Shown: positions 44,134 to 56,987 of the stretch, in pieces | Position numbering within the stretch: position 1 is the stretch's first letter | Layout: each line of letters starts with the position of its first letter | Source: Candidatus Poribacteria bacterium | GTDB taxonomy: Bacteria; Poribacteria; WGA-4E; WGA-3G | Length of the DNA: 64,000 bases | Assembly: GCA_965215265.1 (NCBI GenBank) | Contig: OZ244048.1 | Location: 4,096,001 to 4,160,000, forward strand | Direction of reading: 5' to 3' | Notes under the pieces: generated by a model | The model's input: the letters and a program-made list of their open reading frames with translations, nothing else | Told to the model about the DNA's origin: nothing | Database searches by the model: none | Translations under genes and position numbers: made by a program

Positions 44134-44742
44134 ATGAAAGATTGGAAGAACCCGCAAAAATGTGTGGTAGTTTTATTAGGGGGGCTGGTGTTAGTGTTTG
44201 CCTGCTACGGGCTGGTAAGAGCGCAACACGGCTTGATGCCGGCTCCCTCAGAGACGCGGCACGTCTCCCCGCCGGTTGGGGGGCTTGCAGGGCTCGAGAG
44301 TGACTTGCCTACAGTGTCCGCTGACTCGGTTTCTCCTGAAACGGTTGCAGAGTGGTTGTCGCTGTTACGTGCCAACAATGACGGCTCAGCCGTCTTTGCG
44401 CAAGGGATAGCAAACCTCGAACAGGTGCTAACCGAGATGCAGCCTGTGGCGCGGCCGCGGCTGTTAGCGAACTATCCGAATCCGTTCAACCCAGAGACGT
44501 GGATACCGTATCAGTTGGCAGTGCCAGCGGATGTAGAGGTGTCCATCTATGCGTTGGACGGGCGTTTGGTTAGGACGTTAGCGTTGGGGCATCAAGCGGC
44601 GGGCCGCTACGAGAGCAAGGCGCGCGCCGCGTATTGGGATGGGCGTAACGAGCATGGTGAGCGTGTTGCGAGTGGTATCTATTTCTATACGCTGCGTGCG
44701 GGTGATTTCTCCGCCACGCAGAAGATGTTGATAAGGAAGTAA
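44134..44742 (+). CDS. Secreted protein consisting mostly of a FlgD-Ig / T9SS-like C-terminal domain
   Basis: LLANYPNPFNPETWIPYQL...WDGRNEHGERVASGIYFYTL...KMLIRK. Confidence 0.85.
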   Translation: MKDWKNPQKCVVVLLGGLVLVFACYGLVRAQHGLMPAPSETRHVSPPVGGLAGLESDLPTVSADSVSPETVAEWLSLLRANNDGSAVFAQGIANLEQVLTEMQPVARPRLLANYPNPFNPETWIPYQLAVPADVEVSIYALDGRLVRTLALGHQAAGRYESKARAAYWDGRNEHGERVASGIYFYTLRAGDFSATQKMLIRK

Positions 44743-44891
44743 AGGGAGAGAGAGGTGTAAGGGGGTGTGTGCCGTCTGCGTTTGACGCGGCGGCCCCGCC
44801 TCCAAGCACTCATATTTAGCGGCGAGCATTTCGCGGCATTTAGAGGTATGTAATGTATGATAAAAACGTGTCAAAGGTTTGGAGGTGTTTG

Positions 44892-47630
44892 ATGTATGCT
44901 AAAAGCGTGTCAATGATGTTGTCGATGTTGGCGTGTGTTCTCACGGTTTTGAGTTTGGGCGTTTTGTGCAATGTGTGTGCGCAAGGGGTAAGCGTGGCTG
45001 CGGATGTCGGCATGCTTTCGGCTGTGAAAGGTGATGCGGATGTGAATGGTGATGGCCGTGTGGATATAGTGGATTTGGCCCTGGTAGCGGCGCGCCTGGG
45101 AACCCGCGGTAACAGTTCGGCAGATTTGAACGGGAATAGGGTAGTGGATATAGGGGACGTGGCGTTAGTAGCGGCGGGGTTTAACGGTGCAGCGTCTGCG
45201 CCTGCGGTGCCTGCGTCTGCGCCTGCAGGAATGGTGCTCATCCCCGCGGGCGAGTTCCAGATGGGCAGCGATGCTGCTGATGCGCGGGATAACGAGCAGC
45301 CTGTGCGGAGGGTGCATGTGGACGCGTTCTATATGGATACGCACGAAGTGACTAACGCCGAGTATAAAAGTTTTGTGCTGGCGAATCCCGAGTGGCAGAA
45401 GACGCGGATTCCACGTGCACTCCATGATGGTAATTACCTAAAACGTTGGGAAGGTAATAACTATCCAGTGGGTAAGGGGGACCATCCTGTGACGTATGTG
45501 TCGTGGTATGGTGCGATGGCATATTCTGCGTGGGCAGGGAAGCGTCTTCCAACGGAGGCGGAATGGGAGAAAGCGGCACGCGGTGGGGAGGCAGGTCTGA
45601 AGTATCCGTGGGGAGACACGATAACGCCGAACGATGCGAACTACGATAGGAATGTAGACGATACGACTTCTGTGGGGCGTTATGCTGCGAACGGGTATGG
45701 GCTGTTCGACATGGCTGGGAACGTTCACGAGTGGTGCCTTGATGAATGGGATAAGACATTTTATGCTGCGTCTCCGTCTCGTAATCCGCTGCGTGGTGTG
45801 TCTGGTAGTACGCTTGCGAATGTGGCTGAGATTGTAGCGGACTACACAGGCGTAAATGTGAACTTAAAGCGGGTTTTGCGGGGTGGTAATTGGCGTGCTG
45901 ATGCACGTTACCTGCGCGTCACCGATAGGTTCAAAAGGGAGCCGACGTTCACGGAAAGCTTCGCCGGGTTTCGTTGTGTGAGTGCAGAGCCACCGCCGGA
46001 GCTCCCCACACCGCCGGAACCACCCACACCGCCGGAGCCACCCGCACTGGAGCCGGAGCCACCCGCACCGCAGGCACCTGCAGGGATGGCACTCATCCCC
46101 GCGGGCACCTTCCAGATGGGCAGCAACGATGCCGAGGCCGATGGTGACGAGCAGCCTGTGCGGAGGGTGCATGTGGACGCGTTCTACATGGATACGCACG
46201 AAGTGACGAACGCCGAGTATAGAAGTTTTGTGCTGGCGAACCCGCAGTGGCGGAAGACGCGGATTCCGGATGCCCTCCATGATGGTAATTACCTAAGCGA
46301 TTGGGACGGTAATAAGTATCCTAAGCGTAAGGGGGACCATCCTGTGGTGAATGTGTCGTGGTATGCGGCGATGGCTTATGCGGCGTGGGCAGGGAAGCGT
46401 CTGCCAACGGAGGCGGAGTGGGAGAAAGCGGCGCGCGGCGGTTGGCTAGGGTTAAAGTATCCGTGGGGAAAGACGATATCCTCTGTGCATGCGAACTACG
46501 GTAGGAATGTAGGGGACACCCGTCCTGTGGGGAGTTATGCGGCGAACGGGTATGGGCTGTTCGACATGGCCGGCAACGTTTACGAGTGGTGCCTTGATGC
46601 GTATAATGATGATTTCTATTCTGCGTCTCCGTCTCGTAATCCGCTGAGTGGAGTGTCTGGCAGTATGCTCGCGAATCTGGCTGAGATTGTAGATAACTAT
46701 ACCAATATTGAGTCTCATCGCGTGTTGCGTGGCGGTAGCTGGTCTTTTGATTCACTCTTCCTGCGTGCCGCTAATCGCCGCGGAGATACCCCTACGGACA
46801 CCAATGGCAGCTACGGGTTCCGGTGTGCGAGGGCTGTGACTCCTTCCGTGCCGCCGGCACCTGCAGGGATGGCAATCATTCCCGCTGGTGCCTTCCAGAT
46901 GGGCAGCAACGATGCTGAGGCCCATGGTGACGAGCAGCCTGTGCACACGGTGCATGTGGGCGCGTTCTACATGGACACACACGAAGTGACGAACGCCGAG
47001 TATAAAAGTTTTGTGCTTGCGAATCCCGAGTGGCAGAAGACGCGGATTCCGGATGCCTTCCACAGAGGTAATTACCTATGGCATTGGGAAGGTAATAACT
47101 ATCCAGTGGGTAAGGGGGACCATCCTGTGACGTATGTGTCGTGGTATGCGGCGATGGCGTATGCTGCGTGGGCAGGGAAGCGTCTTCCAACGGAGGCGGA
47201 GTGGGAGAAAGCGGCCCGCGGTGGGTTAGTTGGTAAGAAATACCCATGGGGGGACACGATAACGCCGGACGATGCGAACTACGGTAATAATGTAGGCGGT
47301 ACAACGGCTGTGGGGAGTTATGCTGCGAACGGGTATGGGCTATATAATATGGCCGGCAACGTGTCGGAGTGGTGTCTTGATGCGCATAATGATGATTTCT
47401 ATTCTGCGTCTCCGTCTCGTAATCCGCTGAGTGGAGTGTCTGGCAGTACGCTCGCGAATCTGGATGAGATTGTAGATAACTATACCAATATTGAGTCTCA
47501 TCGCGTGCTGCGCGGCGGTACCTGGGGCTTTCTTTCACGAACCCTGCGTGCCGCGGATCGCATCAGGTCTTCACCAACGCACACGACCGCCTACCGCGGG
47601 TTCCGGTGTGCGAGGGCTGTTACGCCTTAA
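44892..47630 (+). CDS. Secreted dockerin + 3x FGE-sulfatase (C-type lectin fold) domain protein; putative DGR target
   Basis: GGAGG RBS, DVNGDGRVDIVDL dockerin, three F.MG..HEVTN..HPV..VSW..RLPTEAEWEKAARGG..RVLRGG..GFRC domains with Pro-rich linkers. Confidence 0.9.
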   Translation: MYAKSVSMMLSMLACVLTVLSLGVLCNVCAQGVSVAADVGMLSAVKGDADVNGDGRVDIVDLALVAARLGTRGNSSADLNGNRVVDIGDVALVAAGFNGAASAPAVPASAPAGMVLIPAGEFQMGSDAADARDNEQPVRRVHVDAFYMDTHEVTNAEYKSFVLANPEWQKTRIPRALHDGNYLKRWEGNNYPVGKGDHPVTYVSWYGAMAYSAWAGKRLPTEAEWEKAARGGEAGLKYPWGDTITPNDANYDRNVDDTTSVGRYAANGYGLFDMAGNVHEWCLDEWDKTFYAASPSRNPLRGVSGSTLANVAEIVADYTGVNVNLKRVLRGGNWRADARYLRVTDRFKREPTFTESFAGFRCVSAEPPPELPTPPEPPTPPEPPALEPEPPAPQAPAGMALIPAGTFQMGSNDAEADGDEQPVRRVHVDAFYMDTHEVTNAEYRSFVLANPQWRKTRIPDALHDGNYLSDWDGNKYPKRKGDHPVVNVSWYAAMAYAAWAGKRLPTEAEWEKAARGGWLGLKYPWGKTISSVHANYGRNVGDTRPVGSYAANGYGLFDMAGNVYEWCLDAYNDDFYSASPSRNPLSGVSGSMLANLAEIVDNYTNIESHRVLRGGSWSFDSLFLRAANRRGDTPTDTNGSYGFRCARAVTPSVPPAPAGMAIIPAGAFQMGSNDAEAHGDEQPVHTVHVGAFYMDTHEVTNAEYKSFVLANPEWQKTRIPDAFHRGNYLWHWEGNNYPVGKGDHPVTYVSWYAAMAYAAWAGKRLPTEAEWEKAARGGLVGKKYPWGDTITPDDANYGNNVGGTTAVGSYAANGYGLYNMAGNVSEWCLDAHNDDFYSASPSRNPLSGVSGSTLANLDEIVDNYTNIESHRVLRGGTWGFLSRTLRAADRIRSSPTHTTAYRGFRCARAVTP

Positions 47631-47643
47631 ATCTTTACCCCGT

Positions 47644-47663
47644 CCGAGCTGCATGCAGCTCGG
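47644..47663. other. Perfect DNA hairpin 13 nt after the stop (DGR-type target hairpin candidate)
   Basis: CCGAGCTGC-AT-GCAGCTCGG. The homolog at 54200-54219 shows a compensatory change. Confidence 0.6.
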
Positions 47664-47676
47664 CTTATGCGCAGCG

Positions 47677-47752
47677 AAAGATAAAAGCAGAGGTGTGATG
47701 GTGAGTAGGCCGTGTGCCGAATGCTATCACACCTCTTTCTCTTTCAGGCGAT
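47677..47752 (+). repeat. 76-bp hairpin element bounding the Rpn units (copies at 49113-49188, 50585-50660, inverted 53960-54035)
   Basis: AAAGATAAAA..GAGGTGTGATGG..CTATCACACCTCTTTCTCTTT in all four copies. Confidence 0.85.
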
Positions 47753-47878
47753 ACCCATTTCTCCGCCTGATTTGTTTCTCTTTGCTTGACAATGATTCCC
47801 TGATGTGTTATCATAAATAAGAAGTAGGAGTTTTGAGAAGGGAAGCACTTGACAACTGATACGTTTTAGGAGTATAAT

Positions 47879-48979
47879 ATGCAAAAGGGGGACATCCACG
47901 ACTTTTTGTCCGAGATGTCTGTTGCGAACTTTTCCGATCGGAGTATACGCCGCTTATTAGAAAACAGGGAAAACGTCCGGGGCTTGTTAGAAATCGTTGC
48001 GGCAGAACTCGCAGCGTTGATTGACTTTGAGCATCTGGTTCCAATGAATAGGAGCCTGCTGCCCGCCACTCTCCGAGAACAAGAGGCAGACATTGTATAT
48101 CGGGTGCCCTTCAAAAGTGATAGGGATGAGGGTGCGGCAGAGCTGCTCCTCTATCTGCTGATTGAACACCAATCGACGGTAGATGAGACGATGGGATTTC
48201 GTGTGCTTTTCTACATGATGCTGATTTGGGACGCGGAGCGGCGGCGGTGGGCGGCAGAGAAGATGCCGAGAAGAGAGCGTGTATTGCCGCCGATTCTGCC
48301 CGTGGTATTTTACACGGGGGAGCGGCGGTGGGAGAAGCCACTGACACTTGAGGCGCTGATGAATTTGCCCGCGGCGCTCTCTCGATTCGTTCCGAGATTT
48401 GACATCCTATTTCTGAATCTGAAAGGCACAGACAAGGCGACGCTGACAGAGGCGGCGCATCCGTTCGGTTGGCTGATGAGAGTGCTGCAACAAGGAGATT
48501 CAGACAAAGCGTCTATAAGGCGTGCCTTAGTGGAGACTTTGACGCAGTTGGCGGCGCTTGATGCGGCGGATTCGGGGCAGCGGCGGGAAGCGATAATGTA
48601 TCTGGTATCGCTGATTGTGCATCGGCGTCCAAAGGAAGAGCAAGAAGAGTTGATAGAACTGGTAGACCGGCATACGCGTGATATGGAGGTAGCACCGATG
48701 GCAGAGACAATGGCCGAATTCCTCTTAGAACGAGGCATAGCACAAGGCATTGAACAAGGCATTGAACGAGGCATTGAACGAGGGAGAGAACAAGGGGCGT
48801 GCCAGACGGCTATCAAAAATATAACCGCCGTCCTCAACGCACGATTCCCTGACCGTGATATAGAGCCTGCTACGCAGAAACTCGAAACCCTTTCTGATCT
48901 CGAACACCTCGAGCAATTGCTGCTGATAGCCGTCAAAACCGACAGTTTTCAAGCATTCCTACAGGCGTTAGAACTATAG
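47879..48979 (+). CDS. Rpn family recombination-promoting nuclease / putative transposase (YhgA-like), copy 1
   Basis: EADIVYRV, LLIEHQST, PPILPVVFYTGE..W, GIEQ/GIER tail. Internal GGAGG-N8-ATG at 48698. Confidence 0.92.
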   Translation: MQKGDIHDFLSEMSVANFSDRSIRRLLENRENVRGLLEIVAAELAALIDFEHLVPMNRSLLPATLREQEADIVYRVPFKSDRDEGAAELLLYLLIEHQSTVDETMGFRVLFYMMLIWDAERRRWAAEKMPRRERVLPPILPVVFYTGERRWEKPLTLEALMNLPAALSRFVPRFDILFLNLKGTDKATLTEAAHPFGWLMRVLQQGDSDKASIRRALVETLTQLAALDAADSGQRREAIMYLVSLIVHRRPKEEQEELIELVDRHTRDMEVAPMAETMAEFLLERGIAQGIEQGIERGIERGREQGACQTAIKNITAVLNARFPDRDIEPATQKLETLSDLEHLEQLLLIAVKTDSFQAFLQALEL

Positions 48980-49314
48980 AAACGCATGCACCGAACGCCA
49001 TGGCCGGCCCCGGGCTGCTCTTGTCGGGGTGTCAGGTAGGAACCCTACCGTTATTATGCCCTCTGACAAGCGGAGCATGGAAGGTTGCGTACTATACCGT
49101 GTGAGATGAGCCAAAGATAAAACCCGAGGTGTGATGGTGAGTAGGCCGTGCGCCGAATGCTATCACACCTCTTTCTCTTTCAGGCGATACCCATTTCTCC
49201 GCCTGATTTGTTTCTCTTTGCTTGACAATGATTCACGGATGTGTTATCATAAATAAGAAGTAGGAGTTTTGAGAAGGGAAGCACTTGACAACTGATACGT
49301 TTTAGGAGTATAAT

Positions 49315-50451
49315 ATGCAAAAGGGGGACATCCACGACTTTTTGTCCGAGATGTCTGTTGCGAACTTTTCCGATCGGAGTATACGCCGCTTATTAGAAAA
49401 CAAGGAAAACGTCCGGGGCTTGTTAGAAATCGTTGCGGCAGAACTCGCAGCGTTGATTGACTTTGAGCATCTGGTTCCAATGAATAGGAGCCTACTGCCC
49501 GCCACTCTCCGAGAACAAGAGGCAGACATTGTATATCGGGTGCCCTTCAAAAGTGATAGGGATGAGGGTGGTGAGGAGCTGCTCCTCTATCTGCTGATTG
49601 AACACCAATCGACGGTAGATGAGACGATGGGATTTCGTGTGCTTTTCTACATGATGCTGATTTGGGACGCGGAGCGGCGGCGGTGGGCGGCAGAGACGGT
49701 GCCGAGAAGAGAGCGTGTATTGCCGCCGATTCTGCCTGTGGTGTTTTACACGGGGGAGCGGCGGTGGGAAAAGCCTCTGACACTTGAGGCGATGATGAAT
49801 TTGCCCGCGGCGCTCTCTCGATTCGTTCCGAGATTTGACATCCTGTTTCTGAATCTGAAAGGCACAGACAAGGCGACGCTGACAGAGGCGGCTCATCCGT
49901 TCGGTTGGCTGATGAGAGTGCTGCAACAAAAAGATTCGGACAAAGCGTCTATAAGCCGGGCGTTACGAGAGACTTTGACGCAGTTGGCGACACTTGATGC
50001 GGCGGATTCAGGGCAGCGTAGGGAAGCGATAATGTATCTGGTATCGCTGATTGTGCATCGGCGTTCAAAGGAAGAGCAAGAAGAGTTGATAGAGCTGGTA
50101 GACCGGCATACGAGTGACATGGAGGTAGCACCGATGGCAGAGACAATGGCCGAATTCCTCTTCGAACGAGGCATAGCACAAGGCATTGAACAAGGCATTG
50201 AACGAGGCATAGCACAAGGCATTGAACAAGGCATTGAACGAGGCATTGAACGAGGGAGAGAACAAGGGGCGTGCCAGACGGCTATCAAAAATATAACCGC
50301 CGTCCTCAACGCACGATTCCCTGACCGTGATATAGAGCCTGCTACGCAGAAACTCGAAACCCTTTCTGATCTCGAACACCTCGAGCAATTGCTGCTGATA
50401 GCCGTCAAAACCGACAGTTTTCAAGCATTCCTACAGGCGTTAGAACTATAG
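49315..50451 (+). CDS. Rpn family nuclease, copy 2
   Basis: Tandem duplicate (1436-bp period) with 12 extra aa of GIxQ repeats. Internal ATG at 50134. Confidence 0.92.
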   Translation: MQKGDIHDFLSEMSVANFSDRSIRRLLENKENVRGLLEIVAAELAALIDFEHLVPMNRSLLPATLREQEADIVYRVPFKSDRDEGGEELLLYLLIEHQSTVDETMGFRVLFYMMLIWDAERRRWAAETVPRRERVLPPILPVVFYTGERRWEKPLTLEAMMNLPAALSRFVPRFDILFLNLKGTDKATLTEAAHPFGWLMRVLQQKDSDKASISRALRETLTQLATLDAADSGQRREAIMYLVSLIVHRRSKEEQEELIELVDRHTSDMEVAPMAETMAEFLFERGIAQGIEQGIERGIAQGIEQGIERGIERGREQGACQTAIKNITAVLNARFPDRDIEPATQKLETLSDLEHLEQLLLIAVKTDSFQAFLQALEL

Positions 50452-50739
50452 AAACGCATGCACCGAACGCCATGGCCGGCCCCGGGCTGCTCTTGTCGGG
50501 GTGTCAGGTAGGAACCCTACCGTTATTATGCCCTCTGACAAGCGGAGCATGGAAGGTTGCGTACTATACCGTGTGAGATGAGCCAAAGATAAAACCCGAG
50601 GTGTGATGGTGAGTAGGCCGTGCGCCGAATGCTATCACACCTCTTTCTCTTTCAAGCGATACCGAAGACACATACCACTCTCAAAAAAAATGGGCGTAAG
50701 TGATGATTTTGACAGAAGTAAACAAGACAAGACGATGGA

Positions 50740-50940
50740 GCAATCCTTGCTAAAGTTGTGTGACTCGATTTTTGGGCGGGGGCGGAGGCGCGTGGATTTT
50801 GCCTCAAAGGGGTATCCAGAACAGAATTTTTGACATCATCGGAGTCAGCCTTAACGATGACAAATCGGTCCTGCGCGATTCCCTCAAAGAGAATGAACGC
50901 CCGTGGTGGTAGATTTCACAGTGCTCGCAACTTGAAGCCT
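50740..50940 (+). pseudogene. Remnant of a TlpA/redoxin-family gene
   Basis: KVV*LDFWA...GFC and, in another frame, FDIIGVSLNDDKSVLRDSLKENERPW. Confidence 0.6.
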
Positions 50941-50952
50941 ACTGAATACAGA

Positions 50953-52131
50953 TTAACGCCTTGCGTGCTGCGACTCCGCCGGCGCGCGGTAGGCAACCGA
51001 CTCAAGATGCGGGGTCTCCAACAGCACATGTCCCTCAAAACGCGAAGTCAGACAACTCTCCAAGATACCGCTAACGAGCATCGTTCGTTCCGCTGGATAC
51101 GGCGCAACCCCCGTTTCAAACAACTCCTCGATCCGCGAGATGAGACAGGCAGAATAGGTAACGTTCGGAGTCGGAGTTAGGAAAAACTGTGTAGAGACCG
51201 GCACCGGTTCATCCTTCAGTTGGGCGGCGAAGCAGTAATCGCGCACTGCACCGTTGAGCATGAGCAGGGTGGCTTTCAAACCATCGCGGTAATGAATGGA
51301 ATAGGCAGCAGGATTCTCTACAAGGCGTTGCAGCTCCCCGCCACTTAGCAGGTTTTGCGTTCTACCGTCCTCAAGCGTTAACCCGCACGGCGTGTCGCTT
51401 CTGGAGAGTGCGGCTTCTAAAAGCGCGTACGAAAAGGCCCCTGTTTCTTCCCAAACATCAGCGCCATCTACGAGCCGGACGGCAGAGACACCGGTTTCGC
51501 CGCCCCGCCGCCGTTCGAGCATGCACTGCATCGCCTCTAAGGCGTGATAATCCATCGGATCGGAACCGCCAACCCCTACCATTAGTGCCTCACTTATGTC
51601 GCAATCAAGCGGCAGTTCTACATCGGGCAATCGCCAAGTCACAGGCAGCGAGGAGCCTGCGAGCAACCCGAACTCGAGCCGGCGCGCATCGTCAACCATC
51701 TCCTTCGCCTTCTCAAAACTGTAAGAGAGGTGTTTGTCATTAAAGAGAGGCACCGCACGGCCATCCTGCTCAAAGACAGCAACACACTCCTTGAAAAAAT
51801 CGTATCGTGGATAAAGCACCTGCCCCTTTTCATTACATGGGTAATCGCCGTGTTCTCCTATAAGGAGAACCGCATCAACGGCAAGTTCATCACCACCGCA
51901 GCGGAGTGCCTCAGCAATCGTCGGATAGACAGTGAACCCGAACTCTCTCGCTCTGTCAAGACTCTGGTCACCTTCCGGTCTCTGATCAACGTAGAGCGAA
52001 ACGACCCTCATATCTGGGCGGTGCCACCTGCCTTTATGCGGATACCCCACGAGGAATCGATCCGCGAAGTGTTGTGCGTGCGATAGATAACGGTAGATAG
52101 TGGTAATAACAGCGATCCGTTTGGTAGCCAT
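50953..52131 (-). CDS. Conserved hypothetical protein, Gfo/Idh/MocA oxidoreductase-like
   Basis: TIAEAL..GG..LAVDAVLLIGEHGDYP, FNDKHLS, AGSSLPVTWR, YHALEAMQCMLERR. Confidence 0.7.
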   Translation of the reverse strand: MATKRIAVITTIYRYLSHAQHFADRFLVGYPHKGRWHRPDMRVVSLYVDQRPEGDQSLDRAREFGFTVYPTIAEALRCGGDELAVDAVLLIGEHGDYPCNEKGQVLYPRYDFFKECVAVFEQDGRAVPLFNDKHLSYSFEKAKEMVDDARRLEFGLLAGSSLPVTWRLPDVELPLDCDISEALMVGVGGSDPMDYHALEAMQCMLERRRGGETGVSAVRLVDGADVWEETGAFSYALLEAALSRSDTPCGLTLEDGRTQNLLSGGELQRLVENPAAYSIHYRDGLKATLLMLNGAVRDYCFAAQLKDEPVPVSTQFFLTPTPNVTYSACLISRIEELFETGVAPYPAERTMLVSGILESCLTSRFEGHVLLETPHLESVAYRAPAESQHARR

Positions 52132-52154
52132 GCGTCCCTCCAGGGCCGGCGTAC

Positions 52155-53348
52155 TTAAGTCCGCCAGAACGTTGATTCGCGAGTAGGCTCATATCTAATG
52201 TCTAAATGCGGTGTCTCCTGCTTTTCCCCACCTGCGAAGCAACTATCAACGCCGGCTGCAACGAGTCCGGTTGTTAACAGTGTCCGCTCAACAGGATAGG
52301 GTACCCGACCTGTTTCAAACATTTTCTCAATGTTGTTAACCAACGGCGAGAAGAAGTTTGCTAACGTTGTACGGACGGGCGGCATCGGGAGATACATCTG
52401 CGTTGAAAGCACCGTATTATCAGTGCCGATAGTAGCAGCGAAGTTGAAGTCTTGCACCAACCCATTCATCAAAAACATCGTGGATTTTAGGCCGTCATAG
52501 TGTTCATAGTGATAAGCGATCGGGTCTTTCACAAGCTCTTTCAGCTCATCTAACGTCGGGAAGATGTCGTTAAATCCAGCACGCGAAGGGGTGAGCGTAT
52601 GACTCCGACAGAGCGCGGCTTCAAACAGCTCACGCGACCAGAGTTGGGCGTGGTATGCTTCCCAAAAGGTTTCACCGCGATATGCTTGTAGCCATTTAAC
52701 ACCGGTTTCGCCACCTTTACGCCGCTCTACCATACACTGAAGCGTCTCTAAGGCGTGGAAATCGTAACTATCTATACCGCCATAGCCAACACACACCGCC
52801 TCTGAAACCGGGACATCGTAGGGCATCTCAATTGAAGGAGTGCGCCACGTAACGGGCAGAGAGGATCCCGCCATAAACGGGAAATCCAGCTCTTGGGAAA
52901 TGTCATACATCTCGCGTGCCCACTCCCAATTCCACGAGAGATGTTTATCATTAAAAGTCGGGACACCGCGACGGCTCCGTTCGTAAACCTCAGCCATCTC
53001 CTTGAAGTGTTCGTAGCGCGGATAGAGACGTTGCCCCTTCTCGTTAGCCGGATAATCTCCGTGCTCGCCGATAAGTAGCACCCCATCGACAGCGAGTTTA
53101 TCACCGCCGAGCGTCAACGCCTCCGCAATTGTAGAATATGCCGCTACTGACGGATAACGTCCCAACCGTTCGCGGCTCAAGTCGTTTTCACCGAGCTGCT
53201 CAACATATAGAGAAACGAGCTGCATCTCCGGATAGTGGTGGCAGCTATTCCAACCGTAGCCTTCCAAGAACCGATCCACGATATGTTGTGCATGCGAATA
53301 TTTGTGATAAATTGTCGCAATCGCTGCGATTTTGGGACGTGTTTTCAT
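52155..53348 (-). CDS. Paralog of the adjacent oxidoreductase-like protein
   Basis: Same motifs. AGGAGG RBS before MKTRPK. Confidence 0.7.
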   Translation of the reverse strand: MKTRPKIAAIATIYHKYSHAQHIVDRFLEGYGWNSCHHYPEMQLVSLYVEQLGENDLSRERLGRYPSVAAYSTIAEALTLGGDKLAVDGVLLIGEHGDYPANEKGQRLYPRYEHFKEMAEVYERSRRGVPTFNDKHLSWNWEWAREMYDISQELDFPFMAGSSLPVTWRTPSIEMPYDVPVSEAVCVGYGGIDSYDFHALETLQCMVERRKGGETGVKWLQAYRGETFWEAYHAQLWSRELFEAALCRSHTLTPSRAGFNDIFPTLDELKELVKDPIAYHYEHYDGLKSTMFLMNGLVQDFNFAATIGTDNTVLSTQMYLPMPPVRTTLANFFSPLVNNIEKMFETGRVPYPVERTLLTTGLVAAGVDSCFAGGEKQETPHLDIRYEPTRESTFWRT

Positions 53349-53754
53349 ACTTCCTCCTTTAGACCTCACAAGACTTCATTTTTTCTGCACAATTCTAATA
53401 AGGCGTATATTAAACTCTTTACAACGAGATTTAAATCCTCTGATGTTTTGTATCATAACCTAGAAAGGCTCAGACGAGATTTGTGCTAGGTTTTTCAAAA
53501 ACATCAGGTGGTGACGTGCTGCCGTAGCCGAAAATCTCGCCATGCCATGCATTATCCACATCCGAAAGTGTCCACGTGTCTTTGAAAGCAGCCCCTGCCG
53601 CCTGGCTTCCGATAGGCGCTCAGTGAAGCCACCATCAGGGTTCCGTTTTGAGAAGGTCCGAAAGAGGACGGAATCCTTTAAATTTGAACCATTTTTTTCG
53701 CTCTACCGTCTGAAGTTACTTTCACTGTTATTAATCTGTGAGACAGATTCCGCA

Positions 53755-53846
53755 GTTTTCCTGATTTTCTAATAAGCAGCGTATACTCCGGTCCGGAAAG
53801 TTCGAAACAGACATCTTTGACAAAAAGTGCCGGATGTCCTCCTTAA
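53755..53846 (-). pseudogene. 5' remnant of a third Rpn gene
   Basis: KEDIRHFLSKMSVSNFPDRSIRCLLENQEN matches the N-terminus of 47879-48979. The homologous promoter region lies at 53865-53955. Confidence 0.8.
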
Positions 53847-54181
53847 ACGCGACAGGGGCATGCGTTTTTTTCCTCAAAACTTATACTTTTTATTTATAAT
53901 AACACATCCGTAAATCATTTTCAAGCAAAGAGAAACAAATCAAGCAGAGAGAAATCTGCATCGCCTCAAAGAGAAAGAGGTGTGATAGCATTCGGCACAC
54001 GGCCTACTCACTATCACACCTCAGGTTTTATCTTTCGCTGCGCATAAAACGAGCCGCACAAGATACGGGTTGGCCCAGCACAAAACCGAACCGGGTTCAG
54101 CACGCACCAAGCAAAAAATAAGCAGATAATTAACAGATAGTTAATATTTTACCCTATTTATAACGCTTTTTTAACTATTAG

Positions 54182-55348
54182 TTAATAAATTATGCCGACC
54201 CGATCTGCACGCAGATCGGAAGGGGTAAAGGAGTAAAGATTTAAGGAGTTACAGCCCTCGCACACCGGAACCCGAGGAGAAGCCCGTGACGTAGGTGCAT
54301 TCCCGTAGCGATTAGCGGCGCGCAGGGCGTGCATTAAGTCCCAGCCACCGCCGCGCAACACGCGACGTGACTTAACATGTGTAAAGTCGTCTACAATCTC
54401 ATCCAGATTCGCGAGCATACTGCCAGACACATCACTCAGCGGATTACTAGACGGAGACGCAGAATAGAAATCCGCATTATACGCATCAAGACACCACTCC
54501 CACACGTTGCCTGCCATATCATACAGCCCATACCCGTTCGCAGCATAACTCCCCACAGCCGTTGTACCGCCTACATTATTACCGTAGTTCGCATCGTTCG
54601 GCGTTATCGTGTCGCCCCACGGGTATTTCTTACCAACTAACCCACCGCGGGCCGCTTTCTCCCACTCCGCCTCCGTTGGAAGACGCTTCCCTGCCCACGC
54701 AGCATAAGCCATCGCACCATACCACGACACCCACGTCACAGGATGGTCCCCCTTACCCACTGGATAGTTATTACCTTCCCAATCGGCTAGGTAATCACCA
54801 TCATGGAGGGCATCCGGAACCCGCCCCTTCTGCCACTGCGGGTTCGCCAGCACAAAACTTTTATACTCAGCGTTCGTCACTTCGTGCGTGTCCATGTAGA
54901 ACGCGTCCACATGCACCGTGTGCACAGGCTGCTCGTCATCCCAGGCATCAGCATCGTCACTGCCCATCTGGAAGTCGCCCGCGGGGATAAGTGCCATGCC
55001 TGCAGGTGGCGGCACTGCTTTTCCCAGGTGCCCCGCTACCAAGGTTAGGTCGAGGATATTCACAACACCATCACCGTTAACATCAGGATTCCGCTCCTCA
55101 TCGGTAACGGCCACCGCCCCAAAATGAGACGCAACCCCAGCCAAATCAAGCACATTTATGACTCCATCGCCATTGAAATCGAAAGCCTTTAGCGTCTCAA
55201 AATCCGAGGCTTTGACGGAAGGCACACTCAAAAGCATTGGTATAAAACTCAGGGTGACAAACCACATCAAGTGTCTCTGCGGCTTGGCGGGTGCCTTTGT
55301 GAAAGGAACCTCACGTGTGACAGGTTTCTGCTCCAGAATATTCTTCAT
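54182..55348 (-). CDS. Dockerin + single FGE-sulfatase domain protein, frameshifted in its last ~20 codons
   Basis: DFNGDGVINVLDL / DVNGDGVVNILDL dockerin and an FGE domain. The conserved GFRCARAVTP* is present but out of frame (ancestral stop at 54241-54243). Confidence 0.85.
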   Translation of the reverse strand: MKNILEQKPVTREVPFTKAPAKPQRHLMWFVTLSFIPMLLSVPSVKASDFETLKAFDFNGDGVINVLDLAGVASHFGAVAVTDEERNPDVNGDGVVNILDLTLVAGHLGKAVPPPAGMALIPAGDFQMGSDDADAWDDEQPVHTVHVDAFYMDTHEVTNAEYKSFVLANPQWQKGRVPDALHDGDYLADWEGNNYPVGKGDHPVTWVSWYGAMAYAAWAGKRLPTEAEWEKAARGGLVGKKYPWGDTITPNDANYGNNVGGTTAVGSYAANGYGLYDMAGNVWEWCLDAYNADFYSASPSSNPLSDVSGSMLANLDEIVDDFTHVKSRRVLRGGGWDLMHALRAANRYGNAPTSRASPRVPVCEGCNSLNLYSFTPSDLRADRVGIIY

Positions 55349-55432
55349 AGATTTTTCTCCTTTTAGAGTTGTTTAAAGCTCAGGACTTTGCCGCACTTTG
55401 CAGGCGGGCATTCTGCACCTCAAGAGAACGCC

Positions 55433-56620
55433 TTAATCGCGAATTAAGCGCAGAATGTTCTGGACGAAACGGGCTTTCGGCATTGCGCCCCCAAACTGGC
55501 CAACAATTTCACCATTTTGGAACACAATATATGCCGGTATTCCGCGCACCTGATATTTTCTGTGAATTTGCGGGTTAGAATCAATATCCAACTTCGCAAT
55601 GGCGAATGTCTTTCTGTGCTCCGATGCAACTTCGTCTACAATCGGCACCATCTGCCGGCAGAATGGGCACCAGCCTGCCCAAAATTCAACCACAATCGGG
55701 AACTCAGACTCCAACACAATCCTATCAAAAGTGGCATCCGTGACCTCAATAGGAACGCCGGTAGTGGTTTTAACACTTGTACTAAATACTATGTTAACCT
55801 CTGCTGCGTTTCCTGCAGCGTCAGTCACTTCGCCAATGATGATATAGGTAACTTCATTGTCCAGCTCTTTGCCTCTCACCAGGGTTAGGATTGCTTTATT
55901 GCCTTCAACTTTGCCTGACCAGCCGACATCATTACCGGTTTGCGTTCGCAGACCTATCCGTCCACTCACGGTTTCACTAAACTCAATTTCTATCTTCGCG
56001 CGGCTGTTAATCCTTTCAGGGTCAACGTCCCTGTCACCATCAGTGATGTCACCCCCTGTGACGGAGGGGGCTGCGGTATCTGGTTGCAGGACAGTGTAGC
56101 TCAATGTGTGGCTACCGTCAACCCAAGAGAGTGTTAAGTCTAGAGGCCCCGGAATAAAGGGACCCATAATTGTCACGATTTTACCAGCAGTAGTCACAGT
56201 GCCACTGTTCACGGTGACATCAGCCGGCGCATTGTCAAAAACAACGGTGATACTCCCATCAACGGCGAGGCGTGTCCCGCTTGTTGGCTCTATGCTAACA
56301 ACCGCTGCTGGAGGACGCACGGCTTTGCCCAGGTGCCCCGCTACCAAGGTTAGGTCGAGGATATTCACAATACCGTCACCGTTAACATCAGGATTCCGCT
56401 CCTCATCGGTAACGGCCACCGCCCCAAAATGAGACGCAACTCCAGCCAAATCAAGCACATTTATGACTCCATCGGCATTGAAATCGGAAGCCTTTAGCGT
56501 CTCAAAATCCGAGGCTTTGATAGAAACACACAACCCCGCGACAAGCAACAAGCTAAGAATAGATACAAATTTCCTATTCATTACCACGATGCCTTTTTTC
56601 GGGTTCATCCAATCTTTCAT
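55433..56620 (-). CDS. Secreted dockerin + Ig-like + thioredoxin domain protein
   Basis: Signal peptide, dockerin nearly identical to that of 54182-55348, Ig-like (VTDAAGN), EFWAGWCPFC thioredoxin, VRGIP. Confidence 0.85.
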   Translation of the reverse strand: MKDWMNPKKGIVVMNRKFVSILSLLLVAGLCVSIKASDFETLKASDFNADGVINVLDLAGVASHFGAVAVTDEERNPDVNGDGIVNILDLTLVAGHLGKAVRPPAAVVSIEPTSGTRLAVDGSITVVFDNAPADVTVNSGTVTTAGKIVTIMGPFIPGPLDLTLSWVDGSHTLSYTVLQPDTAAPSVTGGDITDGDRDVDPERINSRAKIEIEFSETVSGRIGLRTQTGNDVGWSGKVEGNKAILTLVRGKELDNEVTYIIIGEVTDAAGNAAEVNIVFSTSVKTTTGVPIEVTDATFDRIVLESEFPIVVEFWAGWCPFCRQMVPIVDEVASEHRKTFAIAKLDIDSNPQIHRKYQVRGIPAYIVFQNGEIVGQFGGAMPKARFVQNILRLIRD

Positions 56621-56987
56621 TTAAAAATATCCTTTCGGACGATGTGTCCGTTGTCGATGCGGTTATCGCACCAGTTAGGTTTATAAAAAGCAGCGACGAA
56701 GGTAGATGCTGCTTGAGTTAATAAAAGGGTTAAGTTACGTGAAGTAAGGGGGGGGGGGTCAATCGTCTTAACAGGGACTTAAAACACACGACAGCACGGC
56801 ATACGCACGCGTTCGCGCCAACACTGCAACCCCGCACCACGGGGCCAGGCACTCTGCTCTTCTGGTAAACGGACTCTCGGTGTTTCATCTCTTCGAGTTC
56901 TCGTATCTTTCAGCACATCACCGACAGATTTAATGAGTATCTTTTTACAAATCTCGCCGGAGATTTTCGCGGTTTTTCGTATTTTTC

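Follow-up and report, generated by a model that had tools for sequence, protein, structure and literature searches.

The 64,000-nucleotide (nt) stretch analysed here, called the window throughout (C1:4096001-4160000), belongs to a Candidatus Poribacteria bacterium whose genome is a single contig of 4,833,177 bp (C1), 95% complete by marker genes. It contains four domains of the FGE-sulfatase family (FGE, formylglycine-generating enzyme) with a C-type lectin (CLec) fold, and these are very probably (probability about 0.88) variable-protein domains written by one chromosomal diversity-generating retroelement (DGR) located 2.72 Mb away. Remote DGR targets had been proposed by a first-pass annotation of the window, and the proposal is borne out by a cassette of reverse transcriptase (RT), Avd and template repeat (TR) at that distance, together with mismatches between the TR and the variable repeats (VRs) that are specific to adenines.

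The DGR cassette and adenine-specific mismatches

A Pfam search of the genome for RVT_1 found one locus, C1:1420096-1420737, and no RT within the 64-kb window, in agreement with the first-pass annotation. The RVT_1 match lies in the following cassette.

C1:1,418,066-1,421,146: whole cassette, in the order own target, bAvd, RT, TR
C1:1418066-1419196: the cassette's own target, an FGE-sulfatase gene with a VR at its end
C1:1419462-1419818: bAvd gene (PF22296), 118 aa; E 2.6e-23, 83 bits against a cut-off of 40
C1:1419880-1420944: RT gene, intact, 354 aa; RVT_1 E 1.5e-23; motifs IGNLTSQ and YVDD
C1:1421035-1421146: TR, non-coding, 112 nt with 35 adenines; starts 90 nt downstream of the RT

The motif [ILV]GxxxSQ is a mark of DGR RTs. 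Among solved structures, the best match to the RT is the 328-aa RT of 8ub7 (E 9.6e-63), which we take to be the Bordetella phage enzyme, with group II intron RTs far behind at 1e-20. Mechanistically, the element is a canonical DGR. By analogy with the Bordetella phage prototype, a complex of RT and Avd would copy the TR RNA, misincorporating randomly opposite adenines, and the cDNA would replace the VR, steered by the initiation of mutagenic homing (IMH) sequence at the VR 3' end and aided by a downstream DNA hairpin. Rfam returned no matches at E <= 0.1 for the DGR locus and the VR4 locus.

Translated in the VR frame, the TR reads RVLRGGSWNNNTRNLRAANRNRNTPTNTNNNNGFRCA. Its adenines occupy codon position 1 in 19 cases, position 2 in 12 and position 3 in 4; with 18 variable codons, the TR could encode ~4e17 protein variants per VR, and no stop codon is reachable. 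The first-pass annotation, which recommended a genome search for a non-coding, A-rich template beside a DGR RT and Avd, had also predicted the template itself, and in a string comparison its prediction is off the TR at 2 of 32 bases in the first piece and at none of 30 in the second. The codon signature described there, with positions 1 and 2 variable and position 3 mostly kept, is explained by the TR, because 31 of the 35 adenines fall at positions 1 and 2; some of the VR4 triplets listed as examples are out of register, because VR4 is shorter and its frame is shifted.

In the window, the targets are two genes with four VRs between them; mismatches to the TR are counted separately at its 35 adenines (A) and at its 77 other positions (non-A).

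44853-47630 (+): target gene 1, 925 aa; signal-peptide-like hydrophobic N-terminus, dockerin and three tandem FGE-sulfatase/CLec domains
45870-45981 (+): VR1, internal; mismatches at 20/35 A and 16/77 non-A, p 1.9e-4; two 3-nt indels; IMH lost
46719-46830 (+): VR2 homology, internal, with IMH at 46815-46837; 20/35 A and 7/77 non-A, p 1.3e-7
47502-47613 (+): VR3 homology, terminal, with IMH at 47598-47620; 20/35 A and 4/77 non-A, p 2.7e-9
54182-55348 (-): target gene 2, 388 aa; Dockerin_1 (55025-55183) and one FGE-sulfatase domain; frame broken inside the VR
54258-54364 (-): VR4 homology, with IMH at 54251-54273; 17/35 A and 0/77 non-A, p 8.4e-11; five gaps

With the VR3 region as query, 42 DNA matches were found scattered along the chromosome. 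For the mismatch analysis, 35 VR-like segments were aligned to the TR, 33 of them found by BLAST with the TR and two, domain 1 and one other, added by hand. Mismatches are in excess at TR adenines in all 35 segments (one-sided Fisher p 1.3e-3 to 1.1e-15). Mismatches not concentrated at adenines had been named beforehand as evidence that would speak against a DGR, and the opposite is seen in the window VRs (p 1.9e-4 to 8.4e-11). Ordinary divergence of paralogues, with positive selection on a binding loop and no retrohoming, would also produce variable domains, and some divergence is expected since FGE domains form a large paralogous family; however, the differences coincide with adenines in a non-coding repeat whose neighbours are an RT and Avd, and they are limited to ~75 nt between invariant flanks, which leaves this explanation hardly any probability.

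In domains 2, 3 and 4, RVLRGG is followed by the divergent segment and then by GFRC, which is lost in the frameshifted VR4 protein. The 23-mer GGGTTCCGGTGTGCGAGGGCTGT occurs exactly three times in the window, at 46815, 47598 and 54251 (-), in each case after one of these domains, and in none of 100 shuffles. An invariant sequence behind the domains had been reported in the first-pass annotation, which holds exactly for domains 2, 3 and 4; domain 1 lacks the 23-mer even at <=3 mismatches, and the version found there is recognisable but degenerate. As expected of an IMH and its TR counterpart, IMH*, the TR and the VRs are identical through GGGTTCCGGTGTGCGA and thereafter read GGGCTGT in the VRs and AGACCCT in the TR. 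Thus VR2, VR3 and VR4 all have GGTGTGCGA followed by GGGCTGT, where the TR has GGTGTGCGA followed by AGACCCT; VR1 does not share this pattern. With its lost IMH and weak concentration of mismatches at adenines, VR1 is a decayed relic. The VR spans of the first-pass annotation were right to within a few bases, and what escaped it was the degeneracy of VR1 and the length deficit of VR4.

Terminal and internal variable repeats

Target gene 1 was compared with two three-domain paralogues, C1:4441382-4444192 and C1:1562225-1565029, both of which are 93-100% identical to it along most of its length. By segment, identity to the paralogues is 85-100% in VR1, 93-100% in VR2, 58-72% in VR3 (two bins) and 93-96% after VR3. 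Since VR1 and VR2 are near-identical between the paralogues and VR3 is divergent, only the terminal VR has changed since duplication, and a clear split separates live-looking terminal VRs from frozen internal ones. VR3, which is terminal and has both an IMH and a hairpin, would have been rewritten after the gene duplication, while the internal VR2 (with an IMH but no canonical hairpin) and VR1 (with neither) would have gone without rewriting since then. The proteins would act as binders of ligands, in which one domain can evolve and at most two are fixed. The first-pass annotation held that the three-domain protein archives earlier variants in tandem. The freezing of VR1 and VR2 and the change in VR3 agree with this picture, and we infer that the internal domains may serve as a 'memory'; that the variants kept there had been selected is conjecture.

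Hairpins follow the two terminal VRs of the window.

47644-47663 (+): hairpin ccgagctg-CATG-cagctcgg, after VR3, 31 nt beyond the end of TR homology; z -1.3
54200-54219 (-): hairpin ccgatctg-CGTG-cagatcgg, after VR4; z -2.5

A perfect hairpin of this 8+4+8 form is present after VR3 and VR4, where the folding calculation reproduced it, and absent after VR1 and VR2. Among the 27 terminal VRs of the genome, a perfect 8-bp stem with a 4-nt loop follows 10, and at least 7 of 8 pairs are formed in 14. The perfect stems are of two types, six of them CCGAGCTG/CAGCTCGG and four CCGATCTG/CAGATCGG, which differ by a compensated change of a G:C to a T:A pair; half-converted stems are found among the older copies. 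The hairpin CCGATCTG-CGTG-CAGATCGG is common to all four VRs without non-A mismatches, including the cassette's own target. In the Bordetella phage, an IMH and a GC-rich stem with a 4-nt loop are required for efficient homing and are sufficient to make a target (PMC3240598; here and below, published systems are described from the parts of each paper that were compared).

VR2 retains a perfect IMH, yet it lies in the middle of coding sequence, and a linker takes the place of the stop codon and hairpin that terminal copies have (CCTTAA to CCTTCC). Absence of the hairpin was considered as the cause of its freezing, and this explanation is weakened by an imperfect stem that follows VR2 (z -2.4), so that 'no hairpin' does not cleanly account for a frozen VR2.

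VR4 illustrates the most recently written class. Homing should reset non-A positions to the TR, so non-A mismatches can be taken as a sign that a copy has had no recent rewriting, a clock that is itself deduced from the mechanism. Only 4 of the 35 VRs have no non-A mismatch: the cassette's own target, C1:1795834, window VR4 and C1:4795105. Their 3' flanks are near-identical, that of VR4 being 90-100% identical to those of the two remote copies for ~290 nt and to that of the cassette target for ~140 nt, yet the four A-only VRs are unlike each other at many A positions. Because its non-A bases all match the TR and its hairpin is of the cassette-target type, VR4 would belong to the latest written layer.

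The possibility that all four window VRs are fossils, on which the DGR no longer acts or is silent in this strain, bears directly on this class. VR1 and VR2 are the same between paralogues and VR4 is frameshifted, as fossils might be, and the DGR of Trichodesmium has been reported inactive in culture (PMC4143802). Yet the RT and Avd frames are intact, and the four A-only VRs match the TR at 77/77 non-A bases and differ at many A positions within flanks that are 90-100% identical, as would be expected only if writing went on after the copies arose. We consider fossilization of the whole set unlikely, and the intact RT and Avd together with the four A-only VRs suggest that the DGR is active today.

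The VR4 homology is 107 nt long against 112 nt for the TR, the first variable block being 3 nt short (WDLMHA against WNNNTRN) and the last 2 nt short. Because of these 5 missing nt the frame shifts, GFRCARAVTP gives way to another tail and the open reading frame (ORF) extends to 54182, so that the gene may now be a pseudogene. The deficit is probably due to RT slippage on AAC repeats, left behind in the latest layer of writing. Wu et al. ascribe indels between TR and VR to RT slippage and report length differences in 25/372 DGRs, with 74% of the indels beside AAC and frameshifts in 11 (PMC5758913). Alignment gaps occur in 16 of the 35 VRs here, and each of the four A-only VRs departs from the TR in length (+3, +3, -5 and +2). 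The alternative that the deficit is an artefact of assembly or consensus in a hypervariable, multi-copy region, and that the true gene is in frame, draws on two observations: contigs from four public runs break at VR borders, and the other frameshifted A-only VR (C1:4795105, +2 nt) is also in the youngest class. The published AAC-adjacent, partly frameshifting indels and the length differences of all four A-only VRs stand against it, and we regard an artefact as possible but doubtful.

Public data for 50500-56700 come from six runs, as assembled contigs only, four of which were compared. Their contigs end at the VR4 borders, with many joints from ~54274 to 54340-54489 and unknown letters between. 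When the VR4 protein without its VR was used as query, no close orthologue was found in metagenome contigs, the best of the 80 loci kept having 54% identity.

Several observations weigh against the assignment of the four domains to this DGR or against its recent action on them. With 4 and 7 non-A mismatches respectively, neither VR3 nor VR2 is a pure A-to-N copy of the present TR. The hairpin loops CGTG and CATG are unlike the GRNA consensus, which was derived from phage DGRs, and the folding z-scores against shuffles are modest (-1.3 for VR3 and -2.5 for VR4). The linker after VR2, at 46838-46897 (+), forms an imperfect, interrupted stem of -12.7 kcal/mol (z -2.4), matched in folding by 4 of 200 shuffles. 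Terminal VRs with more stem pairs have fewer non-A mismatches (n = 27; Spearman -0.58, p 0.0015), but because the VRs share kinship this rank correlation and its p overstate the support. Two of the four A-only VRs, VR4 and C1:4795105, are frameshifted, which decay or assembly error could explain. Finally, the contig joints at the VR4 borders are indistinguishable from 30-odd paralogous VRs, and none bridges to unique flanks.

One template, many targets

The 35 VR-like segments that match the single TR lie in 27 open frames; 27 are terminal and 8 internal. At most two non-A mismatches are present in 8 of the 35, and in 15 at least 80% of the mismatches are at adenines. FGE-sulfatase was found in all 22 of the 27 frames that were scanned against Pfam. 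Their N-terminal parts include a dockerin in six (one of them also with a cohesin), a caspase in one and a Peptidase_C39 in one.

C1:1664327-1667755 (-): target with a caspase (Peptidase_C14) ahead of three FGE domains
C1:2355251-2357344 (+): target with a Peptidase_C39 domain
C1:212047-213576 (-): target with cohesin and dockerin

The non-A differences are recurrent at six TR sites, five of them third codon positions.

Site 12: T in 15/35 VRs
Site 18: G in 12/35 VRs
Site 21: T in 16/35 VRs
Site 48: T in 21/35 VRs
Site 50: T in 14/35 VRs
Site 54: C in 14/35 VRs

The nearest RTs, with 83% and 79% identity, are those of L035, an uncultured Poribacteria metagenome-assembled genome (MAG), and of L034, whose TRs lie at L035:5128-5239 and L034:2635-2746. 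These two TRs carry T50, C54, G43, T105 and C108, and all five states recur among the VRs studied here. On the simplest reading, an earlier allele of this TR was the last to write such VRs, which would thus record older states of the template. A second DGR or TR, since lost, could be invoked for the VRs with many common non-A differences and, by extension, for VR2. The recurrent haplotype (T12, G18, T21, T48, T50, C54), with its preference for third codon positions, would suit such a source, but the genome yielded only a single RT and a single A-rich template, and T50 and C54, like the less frequent G43, T105 and C108, occur in the TRs of L035 and L034, which agrees with descent from an earlier allele of this TR. 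A lost second system is improbable. At site 50, window VR2 and VR3 have C, the current state of the TR.

Of 40 relatives, 2 match the RT at E <= 1e-20; in a genome of the same genus, neither the RT nor, at the DNA level, the VR query found a counterpart. The closest relative in which a DGR was detected is a Poribacteria MAG from another genus of the same family. Its RT is 83% identical and its layout of RT and TR is alike; 26 VR-like matches to its own TR are dispersed over 5.5 Mb. The next-nearest group of RTs is cyanobacterial, with 55-60% identity.

Rpn/YhgA-like genes (Transposase_31) recur beside the VRs, and the window has two such loci.

47651-50451 (+): ~228-nt leader followed by two tandem Rpn/YhgA-like genes, 47879-48979 and 49315-50451
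53752-54058 (-): leader copy (53873-54058) and truncated Rpn-like remnant (53752-53844), downstream of VR4

The same unit, with its orientation kept, lies 3' of the TR (C1:1421281-1424059) and of numerous VR hairpins. A conserved leader of ~228 nt precedes the Rpn/YhgA-like genes, and part of it recurs after the gene. The genome contains 31 Rpn/YhgA-like loci by tblastn. A subfamily of 13 shares at least 87% identity with the window copy, and 7 of its members are found no more than 450 nt from a VR or the TR. A role as a conserved DGR accessory gene was rejected, tblastn having given no matches in 80 related RT loci (<=4 kb of flank). A mobile or recombination element of this genome is the probable identity of the unit, which would either spread the module of IMH and hairpin or follow it.

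Taken together, and as a tentative proposal that we hold to be rather improbable as a whole, these features would describe the largest single-template hypermutation system so far, combined with a stratigraphy of VRs, a memory in tandem domains and an Rpn/YhgA-like vehicle. A single TR would serve dozens of binders of lectin fold, scattered and for the most part secreted, with 35 VRs here and 26 in the relative. The VRs would form a stratigraphy in which copies from older TR alleles retain the non-A states of those alleles. Internalised VR domains would be locked at a past specificity and the terminal domain would go on exploring, and the Rpn/YhgA-like nuclease elements 3' of the TR and VR hairpins might carry the IMH-hairpin module to new genes.

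Known systems share parts of this organization. In Trichodesmium erythraeum IMS101, a chromosomal DGR with a single abundant TR RNA has many dispersed, C-terminal FGE-sulfatase VRs, and some VRs there, as here, have non-A changes and IMH mutations and were judged beyond targeting (PMC4143802); a caspase-domain target occurs in both genomes. The parts compared give 12 VRs for the TR (PMC4143802) and 18 TR/VR loci over two DGRs (PMC8867640) in Trichodesmium, against 35 segments in 27 frames for one TR here. Kinase fusions are the main target type described there, whereas the present genome has many dockerin-bearing, probably extracellular targets and tandem three-domain arrays. The Treponema denticola DGR (TvpA) has one cassette target and seven remote FGE-sulfatase/CLec targets, far fewer than here, with an accessory gene of HRDC type in place of bAvd; tandem arrays are not reported in the compared parts of that paper (PMC6602519).

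Bordetella phage BPP-1 shares with the present system an Avd, an RT, a TR, A-to-N rewriting and an IMH at the VR 3' end, as well as a downstream GC-rich stem of 7-10 bp with a 4-nt loop that raises homing (PMC3240598). It is a phage element with one adjacent target, whereas the present DGR is chromosomal, with remote targets and the gene order avd-RT-TR. Its loop consensus is GRNA, against CGTG, CATG, CACG, CGCG or CAGG here, and its spacer to the hairpin is 4-34 bp, against 31-39 nt past the end of TR homology (PMC3240598).

In Thiohalocapsa PB-PSB1, as here, targets are diversified in trans, their duplication is tied to mobile elements, and one target has three VR-bearing CLec domains with VRs of unequal activity (bioRxiv 10.1101/2023.09.22.558884). 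PB-PSB1 counts 15 targets over nine DGR loci, against a single DGR here, and all three VRs of its triple target are described as still varying, whereas the two internal ones here look frozen. Triple-VR CLec targets as such are already known from the parts of the literature compared. In the main text of the survey by Wu et al., the largest sets are 8 tandem targets in Stenotrophomonas and 7 remote ones in Treponema (PMC5758913).

Searches of one literature library, sponge symbionts included, found no published DGR in a Poribacteria-like, probably host-associated lineage. New here are the lineage of the host, the number of targets for a single template and the clear division into live-looking terminal VRs and frozen internal ones. 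The system raises the scale of targeted hypermutation known in a cell, and its written, half-decayed and frozen copies amount to a natural experiment on what makes a sequence targetable: IMH, hairpin integrity or terminal position. According to the part of Roux et al. compared, remote DGR targets escape surveys of short metagenome contigs (PMC8144416), which makes a closed genome with one template matching 35 sites useful. Caution in annotation is also advisable, since such genomes hold dozens of genes labelled 'formylglycine-generating enzyme' that probably encode variable binders and not sulfatase maturases.

Products of the target genes and neighbouring genes

The protein of target gene 1 has three FGE-sulfatase stretches by Pfam (E 6.5e-183). 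The best solved relatives of the domain by sequence are formylglycine-generating enzymes (e.g. PDB 6s07 and 1y1e; E 1e-32 to 1e-34), and window domain 3 matches TvpA (PDB 2y3c) at E 6.9e-13. Judged by these Pfam and PDB sequence matches, the window VRs are predicted to encode the C-terminal face of the CLec/FGE-sulfatase fold; an AlphaFold2 model of domain 3 from a 20-row paralogue alignment reached a mean predicted local distance difference test (pLDDT) score of only 36.8.

The window domains share Pfam family PF03781 with the formylglycine-generating enzymes and differ from them in that their C-terminal stretch is the hypervariable VR. The catalytic cysteine pair of FGE presumably lies in this stretch. 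Because the pair would fall in the VR, where just one cysteine is invariant (C250, of GFRC), an enzymatic role is improbable, and catalysis of the FGE type by the window proteins seems unlikely.

The dockerin noted by the first-pass annotation is real, Dockerin_1 being present in both window target proteins. In target gene 1 it is placed as follows.

45039-45173 (+): Dockerin type I domain, aa 63-107, E 2.8e-06, above cut-off

With eight cohesin-domain matches over cut-off in the genome, parts for cohesin-dockerin display appear to be encoded, the dockerins in the window and the cohesins in the genome. The dockerin and the signal-peptide-like N-terminus indicate that the window proteins are most likely displayed outside the cell, perhaps carried on cohesin scaffolds.

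Four neighbouring genes deserve mention. The gene at 55433-56620 (-) encodes a dockerin with Big_5 and thioredoxin domains, and by eye its N-terminal dockerin module is nearly identical to that of the VR4 protein. Two tandem ORFs, 50953-52131 (-) with 392 aa and 52155-53369 (-) with 404 aa, resemble paralogues on visual comparison; for the former, Pfam gave nothing at E <= 0.001. The gene at 44134-44742 (+), which immediately precedes the three-domain target gene, encodes a small protein with FlgD_ig above cut-off and with weaker, sub-cut-off matches to two sorting domains of type IX secretion, Por_Secre_tail and CHU_C.

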